Origin: a virus
Lineage: Duplodnaviria; Heunggongvirae; Uroviricota; Caudoviricetes
DNA: 64,000 nt
IMG/VR virus record: IMGVR_UViG_3300050500_000527
Strand: one strand, 5' to 3'
A program made the translations under genes and the position numbers. Below the pieces are notes generated by a model. It ran no database searches, was not told the DNA's origin, and was given only the letters and a program-made list of their open reading frames with translations. Shown here one piece after another: positions 3,500 to 24,365 of the stretch. Within the stretch, counting starts at the first letter, position 1. Each line of letters begins with the position of its first letter.

Positions 3500-3864
3500 A
3501 CGTCTACCGGGTAGAGCGCCCGGACGGCGCCGGGCCATATCGTATCCCTACGCCCATGGGGTCCACTTCTATCCGGGTGTACTTGCACCCGGACGGTTAT
3601 GACAATCGCCGCCACCCAATGTGCCCCTTAGCTGCGACTAGGGTTGTTTACCCCGGCAGCCCTTGGATATATGGCTTCCCTAGCCGCACCGCTTACCGCA
3701 GGTGGTACGCTACGCCCTGGGAGCGGGGCGTGCTCGCCGCGTTCGGCTTTACCCTCGCCACCTATTCCGTGCCGCATCAGTACTACGACCGCATTGTGCC
3801 GGAGCAATGCGTGTTCCACCGAAAATATGCGGTGCTCGTTCGCCGCCAGGAGATTCGTATATGA
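3496..3864 (+). CDS. hypothetical protein (122 aa)
   Basis: ATGA start/stop overlap with the upstream gene at 3496-3499. Confidence 0.4.
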   Translation: MNVYRVERPDGAGPYRIPTPMGSTSIRVYLHPDGYDNRRHPMCPLAATRVVYPGSPWIYGFPSRTAYRRWYATPWERGVLAAFGFTLATYSVPHQYYDRIVPEQCVFHRKYAVLVRRQEIRI

Positions 3865-4325
3865 AGCCGACCCGCCGTTCCTTCCTAAAAGTCCTCGGCG
3901 CCGCGCCGCTGGCCGCGAATGCCGCGCGCACTAAAGTCATGGAACTCGTTGGGGCTCAATCTATCGGCGCTGGGGCCGAGGTCGTTAACATGGGCATGAC
4001 TTCGCCCGGTCCTTATTCGCGGCCCGAGCCCGCAAGCCCCGTTGGTTACAACAATGAACCTTACAAAGTCGGCCGCCGCTTGGTCGCGTGGATCAAGCAG
4101 GTCGGCTGGCCAGAATGGCGGAAGCACGAGGTGCGCCTCATAGCGCGTCAGGGGCGGTTGATAGACCCGGACCTCGCCGCCCTACGGTCTATCTCGCCTT
4201 CAGCGATGTTGCGCCTGCAGTGGGCTCGGAACGAGGCGCGCGCCTATGAAGGCATCCTGGGCAATATTGCTCGGGAGGAAGAGCGCAGCGAATGGCATGA
4301 GAAGAATCGCGTAGGGTGGTTCTAG
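3862..4325 (+). CDS. secreted protein with twin-arginine (Tat) signal peptide (154 aa)
   Basis: N-terminus MKPTRRSFLKVLGAAPLAANAA matches the Tat motif S/T-R-R-x-F-L-K plus a hydrophobic stretch and an A-x-A cleavage site. ATGA overlap with the upstream gene. Confidence 0.5.
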
Positions 4326-4347
4326 CGGCGCGCGCCCTCGCCTTACC

Positions 4348-4397
4348 TAGTGGGGGAGCTTACACTGAGGAGCATCAAGTTGCGCTGCTCCTCCCCC
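4348..4397. terminator. GC-rich inverted repeat TAGTGGGGGAGC...GCTCCTCCCCCACTA between convergent genes (candidate bidirectional terminator or repeat element)
   Basis: 12/15-bp arms around a roughly 22-nt loop that contains a second nested repeat GAGGAGCA/TGCTCCTC. Core TAGTGGGGG recurs at 6909-6953. Confidence 0.45.
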
Positions 4398-4411
4398 ACT
4401 AACCGCTAAAC

Positions 4412-5002
4412 TTATTTCGCCACCTCCGAATAAAACCGCGAAGAGCTTACCGGGTTATCTCCGACCTCGACGCTAGCCTGGGCGAGCAGGTCATGCACCC
4501 GCCGTACCAGGCTAGCGTCGCCGTGGCGCAACACCTCCAGCTGGGCGAGCTTTTCCGGCACGTAAATGGCGGCGAAAGGCAGGTCGTTGGCCACGATGGA
4601 AGGCACGTTGTCCAGGATGTCAGCGAGCTTAATGGTGGCGCCCGCGGGGGAACACTTCGTGATGTGGGCGAGGTCAATGGCCGCTCGCGCTTTGCGATTG
4701 CCGTCCTTGGGCTGGGCGACGTTCGTTACCTGATCCACAAGCGCGGAAACGTCGGCGCCAAACTTCCGAGTGAGTTCGCCCAGGCTGACACCGCAGTCCT
4801 CGACTACGTCGTGCAACACGCCCGCGATGAGCACGGCGTAAGGCATCCCCCGCATCGCCAGGGTGTGGCTAACGCGCAGCGGATGCAGGATGTAGGGCTC
4901 GCCAATATGCTTCCGAACCTGGCCCGCATGCGCCTCAGTGGCGAAGATCACTGCGGCGAGCAGGTCGCTCTCGCTCAGCGGATGGGTGGGGTAATGGGTC
5001 AT
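4412..5002 (-). CDS. HD-domain (p)ppGpp/(p)ppApp hydrolase, small alarmone hydrolase (SpoT/Mesh1-like)
   Basis: Motif AHAGQVRKHIGEPYILHPLRVS...VLHDVVEDCG is the canonical RelA/SpoT HD hydrolase signature (H...HP...HD...ED). 196 aa, the size of stand-alone small alarmone hydrolases. Start ATG overlaps the upstream stop (ATGA). Confidence 0.7.
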   Translation of the reverse strand: MTHYPTHPLSESDLLAAVIFATEAHAGQVRKHIGEPYILHPLRVSHTLAMRGMPYAVLIAGVLHDVVEDCGVSLGELTRKFGADVSALVDQVTNVAQPKDGNRKARAAIDLAHITKCSPAGATIKLADILDNVPSIVANDLPFAAIYVPEKLAQLEVLRHGDASLVRRVHDLLAQASVEVGDNPVSSSRFYSEVAK

Positions 5003-5211
5003 TTGGCGTTCTCCTTGGGTGGTGGTGGGGCAATCATGATGTAGTGCGCGAGCAGCAGCTTGATCAGTTCTTCGAGCTGTGGGGCGTTGAATTCGATCCA
5101 TTGGCCCGGTACGTCGTTGAGGTGCATCTGCACCCGAATAACGTTGCGCTCCGTGACGTGCTCGGCTGAGATGGAGTTGATTGGGCTGGGCGTGACTTCT
5201 TCGCAGGCCAT
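4999..5211 (-). CDS. small protein (70 aa) translationally coupled to the HD hydrolase
   Basis: GGAGG ribosome-binding site 6 nt upstream of ATG at 5211; stop TGA overlaps the hydrolase ATG. Confidence 0.45.
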   Translation of the reverse strand: MACEEVTPSPINSISAEHVTERNVIRVQMHLNDVPGQWIEFNAPQLEELIKLLLAHYIMIAPPPPKENAK

Positions 5212-5357
5212 TGGCCCCTCCTAATGCCTCAGCGCCGCTTATTGGGCTGCGCTGAGGACTTGGGCTAACCGCATCTAGAGGCGGTTTAGGTGGGGGACCG
5301 CCGTGCCGAAGCAGAGCCCACAGGCTATCCCCTCAATTTCGGTCACTCGGGGAACGG

Positions 5358-5810
5358 CTAGACGTCTAATCCGTGGGGAGAAGTACCTGGCGCGCATTTC
5401 TCCCAGCTCTCCCGGACTGAAAAAGTGCCTGTATCGCGCAAATTGGTCAGCAGGTCGATGACAATCGCCTTTTGCTGCACGCGGGTCAGCACAGTATCAA
5501 ATGCGACAAGATGATCGCGATTGTTGCTTGCATATTCCTTACGAAATAAGAACAAGGCGTGGCGTTGCTCGTTGTTCAGGCCGAGGTCGAGCGCGGCTTG
5601 TGTCAAATCTTCGGGTGGGCGGCCTTGGAGTTTATTCGCCCAGCCTGCCATGCAGTAAGCCGTGCCGCAAGGTTCATCTGCCCTGGGCGTAAAGCGGATA
5701 TACATCTCGGGGCTGATCTCGTGCTTATATTCGCTCATGCGCAGCAAACCTTCCGGTGCAGAAATCGCTGCAATCATAGCGTTGATTAGGTTGACTTTAT
5801 TGAGCAGCAC
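5358..5810 (-). CDS. hypothetical protein (150 aa; start may be internal at 5777 or 5738)
   Basis: ORF in the codon-biased frame; contains PCGTAYCMAGWA; no family recognised. Confidence 0.35.
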   Translation of the reverse strand: MLLNKVNLINAMIAAISAPEGLLRMSEYKHEISPEMYIRFTPRADEPCGTAYCMAGWANKLQGRPPEDLTQAALDLGLNNEQRHALFLFRKEYASNNRDHLVAFDTVLTRVQQKAIVIDLLTNLRDTGTFSVRESWEKCAPGTSPHGLDV

Positions 5811-6015
5811 GGATTCCCTCCTCGATCATAGAAGCCGTATTGGCCATCTGTTTAAGCCGCTCGGAGCGCAACTTCGATAAGCGCCGATCCAACTCACGGG
5901 CGGCGGCGAGGTCTTCTTCGTGGGTCATTCGTCCGCCCAGGGCTTTCAGTATGAGCAGCAGGTCTTCGTTCTCGATATCAATCGTCCAGACCAGGCGGCT
6001 CTTAAGGTCAGGCAT
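5797..6015 (-). CDS. hypothetical small helical protein (72 aa)
   Basis: Charged, coiled-coil-like sequence; immediately downstream of the intrinsic terminator at 6040-6075, so it probably has its own promoter. Confidence 0.35.
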   Translation of the reverse strand: MPDLKSRLVWTIDIENEDLLLILKALGGRMTHEEDLAAARELDRRLSKLRSERLKQMANTASMIEEGIRAAQ

Positions 6016-6039
6016 CTATTTCCCCTCCTGTTGGGGCTC

Positions 6040-6075
6040 AAAATAAAAGTGGCCGCCGAAGCAGCCACTCAATAA
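6040..6075 (-). terminator. rho-independent terminator (minus strand)
   Basis: Minus-strand reading: AGTGGC-tgcttcggcg-GCCACT followed by TTTATTTT, directly after the stop of gene 6091-6414. Confidence 0.55.
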
Positions 6076-6090
6076 AACCGTATCGCATCC

Positions 6091-6414
6091 TTACGCGAAA
6101 TGCTCGACAACGCATTGCACGGGAACTACGCAATGCAGCTTCAATACTGGGACGCGCCGAGCGCCGTTATACCGCCAGCTCATATAGCTGACCTTGAGGT
6201 GGCTATGGATATGCGCTTCTACCACGGCCCGGAAGCGTTCACCATTTAGCCGAATCGTGATGCGGCGCGGCGTCGCCCAGTACAAGAAGCCGTCGTTGGC
6301 GGCGTTAAGCTCTTCGATACGGTTATAGGCTGCGTCGTCGCTAACCCGCTCAACAGCTCGGCCGTTAAATCCGTTGCCTACCAGCGCCCGCATAATGTTC
6401 ATCATAGCGCCCAC
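6091..6414 (-). CDS. hypothetical protein (107 aa)
   Basis: Start ATGATG preceded by AAGGGTGG, 11 nt after the stop of the upstream 98-aa gene. Confidence 0.4.
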   Translation of the reverse strand: MGAMMNIMRALVGNGFNGRAVERVSDDAAYNRIEELNAANDGFLYWATPRRITIRLNGERFRAVVEAHIHSHLKVSYMSWRYNGARRVPVLKLHCVVPVQCVVEHFA

Positions 6415-6416
6415 CC

Positions 6417-6695
6417 TTAGTACGAAGAAGCGTTGTTGATCAGATCTTCGTGGAACAGGTTAAACAAGAAGGCTTCCTGCTCCAGGTCGCGGACTTCAAA
6501 ATTAACGAACTTGCCATTTGTGTCTATGATAATGCGGTCTTCGGGAGACTCATAACAATCGAAGGCCGGGTAGAAATCAAGGGCCGGGCCATTTTCTACG
6601 CCGCCGCACTCTTCATAAACCGCGTCGAAATGCTGGTGGGCATAGCCCAGTTCGATCAGGTTGGCGTGAACGCCGAGGTTCAGGATATCGTTCAT
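6417..6695 (-). CDS. hypothetical protein (about 92 aa; start MNDILNL)
   Basis: AAGGGGAGAG ribosome-binding site upstream of ATG at 6695; first gene downstream of promoter copy C. Confidence 0.4.
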   Translation of the reverse strand: MNDILNLGVHANLIELGYAHQHFDAVYEECGGVENGPALDFYPAFDCYESPEDRIIIDTNGKFVNFEVRDLEQEAFLFNLFHEDLINNASSY

Positions 6696-6721
6696 TGCTT
6701 CTCTCCCCTTCACTGCAACAA

Positions 6722-6752
6722 ACCTATACCAACACCCCGCAGAAGTAAAGCC
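6722..6752 (-). promoter_or_regulatory. promoter copy C: GGCTTTACTTCTGCGG-N8-TATAGG (half-palindrome version)
   Basis: The 16-mer GGCTTTACTTCTGCGG is identical to the one at 27074 and drives the minus-strand cassette 6695 down to 4412. -35-like TTTACT and -10-like TATAGG are present. Confidence 0.45.
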
Positions 6753-6908
6753 TTAAAAGAGCACAGCGCGTGGCAAATCGCTAGGCTATAGTGGCCGGGC
6801 CGGGAGTTCTTTAAGCTCCGTTTCTCTTCACCTAGGGGTCACCACCTTCGGTTGGAGCTTTCCTCGTCGCTGCTCCCGGCAGCAGACCTTTGACGCATAG
6901 ACGGCACG

Positions 6909-6953
6909 CCCCCACTAAGCCTAGGCCACCCTGCGCCGAAAGCTTAGTGGGGG
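6909..6953. repeat. perfect 12-bp inverted repeat CCCCCACTAAGC/GCTTAGTGGGGG with 21-nt spacer
   Basis: Seen directly in the sequence; shares the TAGTGGGGG core with the 4348-4397 hairpin. Lies in the divergent intergenic region. Confidence 0.5.
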
Positions 6954-7081
6954 TTCTTGCATGTACAGGGTAAGTGTACGTGAAGATGCCCAGCCGGTTA
7001 GCAGCTGGGCTTTAGTTCGTCATTTACCAACGAACACGGTTGAACATACTTGCACTGCTCAACAGGAGGCTAGCTTACATC

Positions 7082-7357
7082 ATGACACGGACGCTCGCAA
7101 TTCTTATTTCCGTAACCGCTCTTCTCGCAGCTTGCAAAGCCGAGACCGGCCGGGAGCTCTATTACCACGACTCTTCATCCCTGGCTCAGGCCAACAAGCA
7201 CCACCGCTCGGCCTCCCTCAATCGCTGGAAGGCGAATGGGGGTTGCCAGGGTGACGGCAATATGACGACCGAACAGGCATCATTCTGCTGGGGCCGCGGT
7301 AAGTCGGCCAATTCCTTCCCGCCGATCGGCGCCTCGGAAGGGGGCAGTGAAAACTAA
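7082..7357 (+). CDS. lipoprotein (91 aa)
   Basis: AGGAGG ribosome-binding site; N-terminus MTRTLAILISVTALLAAC has a lipobox (LAAC) with cysteine +1. Confidence 0.5.
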   Translation: MTRTLAILISVTALLAACKAETGRELYYHDSSSLAQANKHHRSASLNRWKANGGCQGDGNMTTEQASFCWGRGKSANSFPPIGASEGGSEN

Positions 7358-7505
7358 CTTTTCCGAGGCTGGCATTCCAGGCCTAGTTTTGGGAGAAAGA
7401 GGGCGGTAGTCACTGGGGTGGCTGCCGCCCTTTCTACATTTGGACACACCGCGCTGCCCAGGGCGCGCACTAGAGTTGCGAAATTTTAACCTTTGGGATG
7501 CATAC

Positions 7506-12414: not shown

Positions 12415-13050
12415 ATGAAAAAGCTAGGCCGCCACCATACGCGGGTTTCCGTAGAGGCCCCCGTACGGAAGCCGAAGCAGGTCCGCGGCCAGATGAAAGC
12501 CTTTAGCCCGGCGGATGTCACGAACATTGAACAACGGCTACAGGAAAACGGCAGCCTCGTAGATATCCGCGACCTAGCGCTATTCCGCGTGGCTATTGAC
12601 ACGATGCTCCGCGGCTCAGACGTCATAGCCCTAACAGTGGGCACCGTTCAGCCCAGGGCGGACGCGCCGCTCGTGGAAGAGTTCTGGTGGAGCCAGCGGA
12701 AGACCGCGCGGGCCGTCCAGTGCCACCTCAGCGAGCGCACTCGCACTGCCCTGGGCGCCTGGCTCGCCGCGTTTTGGGACGCCTACACGCCCAACGACCG
12801 GGTGTTCAATATCTCCGATCGGCAGTTCCGCAATCGCATTAAGCTGCTGGCCGGATATGCGGGGCACGACCCGCGGCTCTATAGCGGGCATAGCACCCGG
12901 CGCACGCTCCCCAAGCAGATTTATGCCCAGGAACGCAACCTGGCCGCGGCGCGCCTACTACTCGGCCACACGTCGATCGGCGCGACAGCAGAATATTTGG
13001 GCGTAGAGCGTGAAGACGCGAAAGAAGCTTGGAAGAGGAACGTGCTATGA
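12415..13050 (+). CDS. tyrosine recombinase (phage integrase family, short catalytic-domain-only form, 211 aa)
   Basis: C-terminal LLGHTSIGATAEYLGV corresponds to the LGH...Y catalytic tyrosine motif. Upstream RDLALFRVAIDTMLRGSDVIALT carries the conserved arginine box; HSTRRT carries the His-x-x-Arg. Confidence 0.6.
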   Translation: MKKLGRHHTRVSVEAPVRKPKQVRGQMKAFSPADVTNIEQRLQENGSLVDIRDLALFRVAIDTMLRGSDVIALTVGTVQPRADAPLVEEFWWSQRKTARAVQCHLSERTRTALGAWLAAFWDAYTPNDRVFNISDRQFRNRIKLLAGYAGHDPRLYSGHSTRRTLPKQIYAQERNLAAARLLLGHTSIGATAEYLGVEREDAKEAWKRNVL

Positions 13051-13633: not shown

Positions 13634-14286
13634 GTAACCGGCTCTTCCTCTACCACCGCCCCACCCGGCAGTTCCTGATCCTGGCCCAGCGGGGCGAATT
13701 CGGATGGGTGCCGACGGGCGGCCGGAATGACGAGCTATTCGTCGGCCTGGCCAACATGTTCCAGCGTGCAGCCAATGGCCTGGATGCAACCCAGCCCTTC
13801 GGTCACCAGGATGACTTCGTGCTGCTTATGGACAGCGCGGAGGGCGCCCCTTATGCCTACCCGCTGGACGACGCCTCCCACTATTGGGTCGGCGACGACC
13901 TACACCTCCGGCCGCCGCTCGCCTTTACCGGCGCCACTAACCGCGACGAAGCTGCCCAGTCCCTACAGCGCACGCTAGCCATCGTTAGCGGTCATCGCGG
14001 CGTCCCGAAGGCCTGGGACGATAAAGGTCAGCAGCGCGTGCTCGCCGCGAACGACATGTTGCAAGCGGAAAACGCCGAACTGCGTGACGGTATTCGTTAC
14101 CTGATGGAGATGATTGATCTGCGTAAGCTCGGCGAGCAGATTTTCGCGCATGAGCTGCTCGGCCAGAAACACCCGGCTCGCGTGCAGTTTAAGGAGCGCG
14201 TCGCGGTGCTATGGCCCAAGGTGTTCGCCTGGGCAGAAGGCTTCGAGGAGCGGGTCAAGAACTGGCGCCGGAAGCGGCGGGCCTGA
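13630..14286 (+). CDS. hypothetical protein (218 aa)
   Basis: ORF in the codon-biased frame, coupled on both sides; no motif recognised. Confidence 0.4.
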   Translation: MSNRLFLYHRPTRQFLILAQRGEFGWVPTGGRNDELFVGLANMFQRAANGLDATQPFGHQDDFVLLMDSAEGAPYAYPLDDASHYWVGDDLHLRPPLAFTGATNRDEAAQSLQRTLAIVSGHRGVPKAWDDKGQQRVLAANDMLQAENAELRDGIRYLMEMIDLRKLGEQIFAHELLGQKHPARVQFKERVAVLWPKVFAWAEGFEERVKNWRRKRRA

Positions 14287-23881: not shown

Positions 23882-24365
23882 ACAACGCCCTCCGGATACG
23901 GACGAGCGCGGGCAGCGCAGCCTGCTCCCGAACGGGATCGGCTAGGGGTTTTTGGGGGTTTTTGGGGGTTTCCTGCTCCTGTTCGGGAGCCATCGCCCGG
24001 TCAGCGGAGGCACGCACCGCCCAAGTGTCAGGTTTAAGGTGCCTTCGGCTCAGCGCGCGCTGCGGCGAGCGCGCCGCGGTAAAGGTAGGCGGTACGATGC
24101 GGAACTGTTCTAGGCGATTTTTGTCCTGGAGCTCCACCTGGGCGACGAGCGATTCCGGTCGGTTATGCTTCATGCGGGCGAAGGCCCAGAGCTCCGTGGG
24201 GTCATGAGCGGTATCGAACATCGCCTCACGCACCGCTTTCCGCAGGATTGGCGGTAGCTTATCGAAGCACTCCATCCAATAGCGGGTGCGTTGCTCGTAA
24301 CGCGCACTAACGGGCGTGGAATAGTTCAGCGCGATAGATTCAGGCCGCTTCTTCCGGCGTGACAT
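23874..24365 (-). CDS. hypothetical protein between the terminase subunits (163 aa)
   Basis: Overlaps both terminase genes by short distances; contains the (GGGGGTTTTT)3 tract that encodes TPKNPQKP. Confidence 0.4.
   Translation of the reverse strand: MSRRKKRPESIALNYSTPVSARYEQRTRYWMECFDKLPPILRKAVREAMFDTAHDPTELWAFARMKHNRPESLVAQVELQDKNRLEQFRIVPPTFTAARSPQRALSRRHLKPDTWAVRASADRAMAPEQEQETPKNPQKPLADPVREQAALPALVRIRRALFG
23945..23972. repeat. tandem decamer (GGGGGTTTTT) x about 2.8 inside a coding region
   Basis: Seen directly; homopolymer runs G5/T5 repeated three times. Confidence 0.6.

Follow-up and report, generated by a model that had tools for sequence, protein, structure and literature searches.

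The 64,000-nucleotide (nt) stretch analysed here, hereafter the window, comes from IMG/VR record IMGVR_UViG_3300050500_000527 and belongs to an uncultured tailed phage of about 100.6 kb with roughly 60% G+C. At the locus of interest, six minus-strand genes form a block that ends with a gene for an HD_4 (RelA/SpoT-type HD) hydrolase (4412-5002; 196 aa; HD_4 domain confirmed at E=1.8e-17). A strong GC-rich hairpin stands on either side of the block, H1 at 4348-4401 and H2 at 6909-6953. The original prediction took the two hairpins for shared boundary elements, either repeats of the repetitive extragenic palindromic (REP) or miniature inverted-repeat transposable element (MITE) kind, or recombination sites delimiting a mobile moron cassette. 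Both hairpins are real, H2 with a perfect 12-bp stem exactly as described and H1 ending 4 nt beyond the position 4397 first given to it. The six-gene minus-strand cassette is likewise backed by public gene calls. H1 does lie immediately outside the cassette, 11 nt before the HD stop codon, whereas the same wording fits H2 only loosely, at 214 nt 5′ of the first cassette start codon (6695).

H1 occupies the convergent junction between the HD gene and a 154-aa gene on the plus strand (3861-4325), whose stop codon is 23 nt away, so its terminator-like placement had been read correctly. Its outer stem is a perfect 11-bp duplex formed by TAGTGGGGGAG (4348-4358) and CTCCCCCACTA (4391-4401), closing a 32-nt loop inside which an inner stem, GAGGAGC/GCTCCTC, joins 4368-4374 to 4387-4393. 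The hairpin can form on either strand. It is the central part of a self-folding intergenic module of about 85 nt (4324-4407) that spans the entire gap between the two genes. In the consensus fold derived from the two copies of the module described below, an outermost closing stem, AGCGG(U)/(G)CCGCU, surrounds the 11-bp stem and the inner hairpin. The true ends of the module cannot be set because homology between the copies stops where coding sequence starts. Folding energies of H1 and H2 range from -27.6 to -34.8 kcal/mol (z from -1.6 to -3.2) and are strong on both strands; the module at 4324-4407 reaches -37 to -39 kcal/mol on either strand. The tails that follow H1 are ACCGCUAA on the plus strand and GGUAAGGC on the minus strand.

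A scan of IMG/VR with an H1-type pattern gave ten matches, one of which is a true H1 homologue. It is carried by IMGVR_UViG_3300046656_000613 (94,166 nt, 62% G+C), where L128:1352-1436 (equivalent to L139:12105-12189) is 92% identical to window positions 4324-4407 over 85 nt. In blastn and tblastx comparisons the module is the sole similarity between 22 kb of this second phage and about 80 kb of the window phage. These 80 kb, namely the window and a further 15.6 kb, are the portion of the 100.6-kb genome that was examined for the module and for the word discussed below. A 20-mer of the module core is present in IMG/VR only on IMGVR_UViG_3300046656_000613. Near and distant searches of GenBank phages, with the hairpin region and with the module, gave no DNA-level match, and a plasmid search with the module returned a single 24-nt chance match only.

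In the second phage the module is found 1 nt after the stop codon of a convergent gene for a 1555-aa LPD38-domain protein and 3 nt after the last of 21 tRNAs. The tRNA array itself occupies L139 12193-15917. Both copies of the module are therefore at convergent junctions, and the strand turned towards the tRNA array in the second phage is the same one that is turned towards the HD mRNA in the window phage. Both copies have folding energies of -35 to -39 kcal/mol, whichever strand is folded. Comparison of the two copies revealed one outer-stem pair that differs compensatorily, G-C being replaced by U-A. The other six differences are clustered in the unpaired linker, and the loops and a 24-nt flank, GGTAAGGCGAGGGCGCGCGCCGCT, are identical. 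The compensatory change, together with the confinement of the differences to the linker, is evidence for a structure under selection. Conservation at this level may reflect either a sequence-specific function or a very recent transfer; any direction of transfer between the two phages would be conjectural.

Such a pattern could be expected of a small stable structured RNA, coming in the window phage from the 3′ untranslated region of the HD mRNA and in the other phage from processing at the end of the tRNA precursor, with the conserved loop GCGCAACUUGA as its functional or seed part and with H2 unrelated to it. It is one and the same module strand that comes after the HD mRNA in one phage and, by 3 nt, after the tRNA array in the other; loops and flank are perfectly conserved next to a variable linker, and the fold is closed by a terminal stem. 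Against this, a search of 4000-7400 on both strands with Rfam 15 gave nothing covering H1 or H2 at E<=1, and a covariance model built from the two copies recovered no further credible member in 463 kb of phage DNA (best other match, E=0.06). The z-scores on the strand concerned are modest (-1.6 to -2.1), and with two sequences only the conservation may reflect recent transfer. We consider this explanation unlikely.

The relation between H1 and H2 was then considered. By length of perfect stem they rank second and third among the 30 hairpins of the window (perfect stem of at least 9, loop of 3-50). The longest perfect inverted repeat, 14 bp with a 25-nt loop, is at 4468-4520 within the HD coding sequence. 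In the window the exact 9-mer TAGTGGGGG/CCCCCACTA is restricted to the four arms of H1 and H2, and its one-mismatch variants are no more frequent than chance predicts (11 observed against 11.0 expected). One arm pair has 10 nt in common, CCCCCACTAA, at 4393-4402 and 6909-6918. In second-order Markov simulations, any two hairpins more than 200 nt apart had a common 9-mer in 18 of 600 cases (3%). The real window is richer in hairpins than the simulated ones (35 against a mean of 19), which probably brings the unconditioned chance closer to 5-10%; the analytic estimate for H1 and H2 specifically is about 1e-4. Sharing of the 9-mer by chance is therefore unlikely, yet possible given that the whole sequence had been scanned by the reader who noticed it.

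Beyond the common word the two hairpins have little resemblance. H1 has its G-arm first and H2 its C-arm first, on both strands. Reverse-complementing leaves the arm order of a palindromic element unchanged, so neither hairpin can be an inverted copy of the other. Their loops have neither length nor sequence in common, and the identity does not extend beyond 9-10 nt. Past the word, the stem of H1 goes on with GAG/CTC and that of H2 with AAGC/GCTT, a difference that points to selection for pairing and not for a longer common sequence. Judged from their sequences, the two hairpins do not represent a single palindromic element in two copies. A derivation of H2 from the junction of two tandem H1 modules was also tried; when the loops were aligned, p was 0.015 in one orientation and 0.87 in the opposite one, and this was not convincing.

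No repeat family was found to which the hairpins could belong. The word does not recur in the further 15.6 kb of the phage genome. In IMG/VR, the pattern CCCCCACTA-N10-40-TAGTGGGGG has 43 matches where roughly 45 are expected by chance, all of them unrelated terminator-like hairpins from phages of any G+C. Among 185,579 species represented by one genome each, a set from which the true host may be absent, CCCCCACTAA-N8-38-TTAGTGGGGG has 47 matches in 47 scattered genomes; none is like H2 beyond the arms and no genome has several. In neither collection did these scans bring out a REP-like family; there were only scattered single hairpins. REP sequences and bacterial interspersed mosaic elements occur as tens or more copies of one imperfect palindrome per genome. 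The locus resembles them in having short intergenic palindromes, and the H1 module, present in two unrelated genomes, has short AGCGG/CCGCT terminal inverted repeats, which pair in the consensus fold. It differs in that H1 and H2 are different palindromes, with no multi-copy family, no target-site duplication visible at either copy of the module and neither RAYT nor transposase. In searches of Pfam and PHROGs with the six cassette genes and their neighbours, HD_4 was the only family found; there was no RAYT (Y1 transposase), and IntI, TnpA and TnpB domains were absent from the block. Integron attC sites and IS200/IS605 ends are also unlike H1 and H2, whose arms lack GTTRRRY/RYYYAAC cores and whose arm orders are opposite. 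The idea of REP- or MITE-like copies is not supported for the pair. It is kept, in altered form, for H1 alone, within a discrete 85-nt module that is found in another gene context in an unrelated phage.

Alternatively, the four TTAGTGGGGG copies might be half-sites of a sequence-specific DNA-binding protein, such as a phage regulator or recombinase, with a head-to-head pair at one end of the block and a tail-to-tail pair at the other. All four arms have the exact word, which is absent elsewhere in the window, H2 is in a control region, and a small tyrosine-recombinase-like gene (12415-13050) is conserved nearby. The words are, however, spaced by 36 and 26 bp, which is far from the known geometry of tyrosine-recombinase or operator sites. 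The different stem extensions favour selection of pairing over selection of sequence, and the L128 copy carries a compensatory change. One of the relatives presented below, L064, keeps the recombinase-like gene, yet neither relative has the word at the locus. Half-sites appear very unlikely. The gene at 12415-13050 encodes 211 aa with a PF00589 match and is 53% identical in L064; no other sign of lysogeny was noted. It also seems improbable that the H1 module is a horizontally exchanged sequence-specific RNA or DNA element of phages, either as a terminator cassette that moves or as a small stable RNA, and that H2 has the same word because one factor reads both. Paired RNA hairpins of the lambda nut or HK022 put type were rejected, as the arm order is opposite in the respective transcripts and H1 lies at operon ends. 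Hairpin promoters of the N4 type were rejected on stem and loop size.

Few relatives of the window phage are known and two are informative. The first, L064 (IMGVR_UViG_3300028786_000007), is a 100.4-kb contig whose portal protein is 84% identical and in which the rightward gene order is kept. It has a minus-strand block in the equivalent place, with the same promoter motif and an HD protein 54% identical to that of the window. HD is the only cassette gene in common, the other three genes of the L064 block being unrelated to those of the window. On the plus strand, DUF8224, a 133-aa gene and DUF1653 replace the lipoprotein gene and the 154-aa gene. At its convergent junction L064 carries a 13-bp hairpin, AATGAGGAGGAGC-7 nt-GCTCCTCCTTCTCATT, which contains GGAGGAGC/GCTCCTCC as in the inner stem of H1, without TAGTGGGGG; its divergent region is 144 nt long and free of hairpins. 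The second relative, L059, is a 2,969-nt contig with an HD protein 64% identical, convergent with its neighbour through overlapping gene ends and without a hairpin. The shared word is absent at this locus in both. Inside a 353-aa gene of L064, a 5-nt loop separates the arms of a perfect 26-bp inverted repeat (13982-14038). All five public contigs with the lipoprotein gene of the window have the same arrangement, with no cassette-less or length variant.

Other searches for comparable loci added little. Neither the recombinase-like gene nor the 207-aa open reading frame (ORF) at 3702-4325, within which the 154-aa gene lies, led to relatives in IMG/VR. A 282-aa protein used as query in the same collection retrieved distant phages only, with gene order not conserved. 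A metagenome scan with an HD alignment retrieved remote HD proteins only. Long contigs with other homologues of HD or gp49 come from different phages, in which the genes are co-oriented, and they were uninformative.

The relatives bear directly on the proposal that the hairpins delimit a mobile moron. Both keep the HD block in the same place without these hairpins, L064 with its promoter as well, a situation that the original prediction had itself named as refuting; the hairpins are therefore not the boundaries of a mobile cassette. Cassette content varies, and so do the plus-strand genes just outside the hairpins, so that variability between relatives is not limited to the stretch that the hairpins enclose. 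As far as the compared contigs go, the minus-strand block is an old, plastic transcription unit of the lineage and not a recent hairpin-bounded insertion. Under the moron model of Hendrix and Juhala, a gene with its own promoter and terminator is said to be inserted between genes that are adjacent in relatives. The block resembles this arrangement, being on the opposite strand, slightly lower in G+C and made of accessory-type genes, with its own promoter, whose motif is conserved, and a terminal hairpin, H1, which is non-canonical. It departs from it in that relatives hold the block in place with the same anchor gene, the block has internal terminators, and the flanking genes are adjacent in no relative seen.

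A related proposal is that H1 and H2 are paired boundary or linker elements resembling the promoter-early stem-loops (PeSLs) of T4-type phages, with recombination at short repeats that swaps, deletes or inserts the block. The direct repeat CCCCCACTAA flanks 2,516 bp, the block content differs between relatives, and the H1 module appears to have moved between unrelated phages. Published PeSL stem-loops are typically GGGG...CCCC and flank shuffled ORFans (PMC2839356); H1 and H2 are also stem-loops of G-runs and C-runs, intergenic, in a variable region with small genes alongside, and PeSLs have been proposed as crossover points. PeSLs are, however, composites of a sigma-70-like promoter and a stem-loop of about 100 bp, present in many copies that cluster in variable regions (PMC2839356, PMC4122927), whereas here there are two hairpins only, without the promoter motif of the phage, and 9-10 nt in common stand against about 100 bp conserved and dozens of copies (PMC2839356). 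In addition, H1 and H2 have opposite arm orders and unrelated loops, the relatives have the block (one also the promoter) without hairpins, genes outside the block vary too, and no deletion variant was seen among the five contigs. The promoter motif of the phage, with its internal palindrome (27074-27104, 32814-32844), is closer to a PeSL than H1 or H2 are. Overall, we find it unlikely that the hairpins act as paired boundaries.

H2 has a different setting. Its stem, CCCCCACTAAGC (6909-6920) with GCTTAGTGGGGG (6942-6953), closes a 21-nt loop and lies 129 nt 5′ of the next plus-strand gene (7082) and about 155 nt upstream of the conserved leftward promoter of the block. It thus belongs to a divergent control region with no upstream plus-strand gene, in agreement with the original prediction. 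This region of 386 nt is unusually structured (z=-2.8 for the fold of 6756-7081). Between H2 and the next gene start, four small hairpins can be drawn on the plus strand, at about 6955-6986, 6988-7011, 7016-7037 and 7041-7067. A weak promoter-like TTTACC-N16-CATACT at 7023-7050 (plus strand; 8 of 12 matches) was read from the sequence and went unflagged by the scan. The tails of H2 are UUCUUGCA (plus) and CGUGCCGU (minus), the former partly U-rich (UUCUUG) on that strand only. No H2 homologue was found in the relatives or in the collections scanned. An orphan terminator left by a deleted block was considered and rejected, as 6696-7081 has, apart from the promoter, no remnant similarity to L064. 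Elsewhere in the window, at 26981-27010 (plus), a terminator-like hairpin with a T-rich tail lies in a divergent intergenic region 5′ of a promoter; like H2, it has nothing upstream to terminate.

Taken together, we favour, as somewhat likelier to be right than wrong, a reading in which the two hairpins are separate things. H1 would be a portable module that serves transcript ends in both directions, and H2 a hairpin, specific to this lineage, that acts as an attenuator or insulator on the plus strand. Transcripts reaching the H1 module from either side would have their ends there, the module serving as a two-way terminator or as a structure that protects 3′ ends. It would be portable between phages, a near-identical copy doing the same job at the convergent junction of an unrelated phage. 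The lineage would already have had a junction hairpin with a related inner stem, as in L064. H2 would most likely attenuate or stop plus-strand transcripts before these reach the rightward operon, whether they run antisense through the block or start inside it. The two hairpins would happen to have a 9-10-nt G5/C5 word in common. What is known of bidirectional intrinsic terminators agrees with part of this: H1 is strong and GC-rich, fills a convergent gap, folds on both strands and recurs at the convergent junction of the second phage. It differs from them in lacking U-tracts, in its branched 32-nt loop and in being embedded in a conserved 85-nt module with a closing outer stem.

Several observations weigh against this interpretation. 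No U-tract is found beside H1 on either strand, and the tail of H2 is limited to UUCUUG. A terminator scan called neither hairpin; compared with canonical intrinsic terminators, the stems fit, but the 32- and 21-nt loops and the tails do not. The same phage uses canonical terminators, at 6047-6070 and at about 32745-32780. For H2, no plus-strand promoter above chance was detected upstream in the promoter scan. For the module, 92% identity that includes the loops and the 24-nt flank exceeds what a mere terminator needs. The common 10-mer is left as a coincidence at the 3-10% level, otherwise unexplained. Finally, the comparison is based on two relatives and one other copy of the module.

The transcription signals of the block can be described further. 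Its promoter is at 6724-6755 on the minus strand, with the motif GGCTTTACTTCTGCGG...GGTATAGG. TTTAC-N15-20-TATAG occurs three times in the window against 0.12 expected. The longer motif GGCTTTACTTCTGCGG...GTATAG(T/G) was recognized by eye at 6724-6755 (minus), 27074-27104 (plus) and 32814-32844 (plus), and also at 9262-9296 of L064. After the second of these, a non-coding leader of about 220 nt (27105-27326), with an imperfect 21-nt hairpin at 27218-27267, could be a leader or a small RNA. Within the block, a canonical intrinsic terminator (6047-6070, minus strand; 10-bp stem, UUCG loop, U-rich tail) stands between cassette genes 2 and 3, so that the block is split into at least two transcription units.

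Apart from the HD gene, the cassette genes, all on the minus strand, have no family. In order of transcription they are gene 1 (6417-6695, 92 aa), gene 2 (6091-6405, 104 aa), gene 3 (5797-6015, 72 aa), gene 4 (5358-5810, 150 aa) and gene 5 (4999-5211, 70 aa), the last with an ATGA stop/start overlap with the HD start. In a distantly related IMG/VR phage, four paralogues of the 150-aa protein are encoded in tandem (L049 2196-5284). On the plus strand, the 154-aa gene, whose stop codon adjoins the H1 module, has a weak, sub-threshold match to a twin-arginine translocation (TAT) signal sequence. The rightward block starts with a predicted lipoprotein gene (7082-7357, 91 aa), the lipobox LAAC being read from the translation.

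As to the phage as a whole, exact-protein look-ups identified two public contigs of 100,595 and 100,719 nt that are 100% identical to the window in the overlap and circularly permuted with respect to each other. Portal, terminase and structural genes are identifiable; the best portal identity to GenBank phages is only about 40%. In 63350-63868 and the first 10,000 nt past the right end of the window (L138), Pfam matches to HMUDK_hel and ADDT and a thymidylate-synthase-like gene were found; this set, beside genes for a dCMP deaminase and DNA polymerase A, suggests a pathway for DNA with hypermodified thymidine. At 31332-31423, ARAGORN calls a tRNA-Ser(CGA) within a 469-aa ORF (31319-32728); the call is probably false, or else the ORF is not a gene. 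At 23934-23980, a G5T5-type repeat, GGGGTTTTTGGGGGTTTTTGGGGGTTT, is in the loop of a 10-bp inverted repeat, in or beside a small ORF 5′ of the terminase gene.

If the two hairpins are what we propose, the locus would represent ordinary phage transcript-end architecture, and the moron-boundary idea could be dropped. What stands out is an 85-nt intergenic module, 92% identical between phages with nothing else in common nearby. It is a clean example of a non-coding linker that moves, or is retained, independently of the flanking genes, the kind needed by models of modular exchange. Should the module instead turn out to function as an RNA or as the target of a protein, it would count as a new small element of phages.

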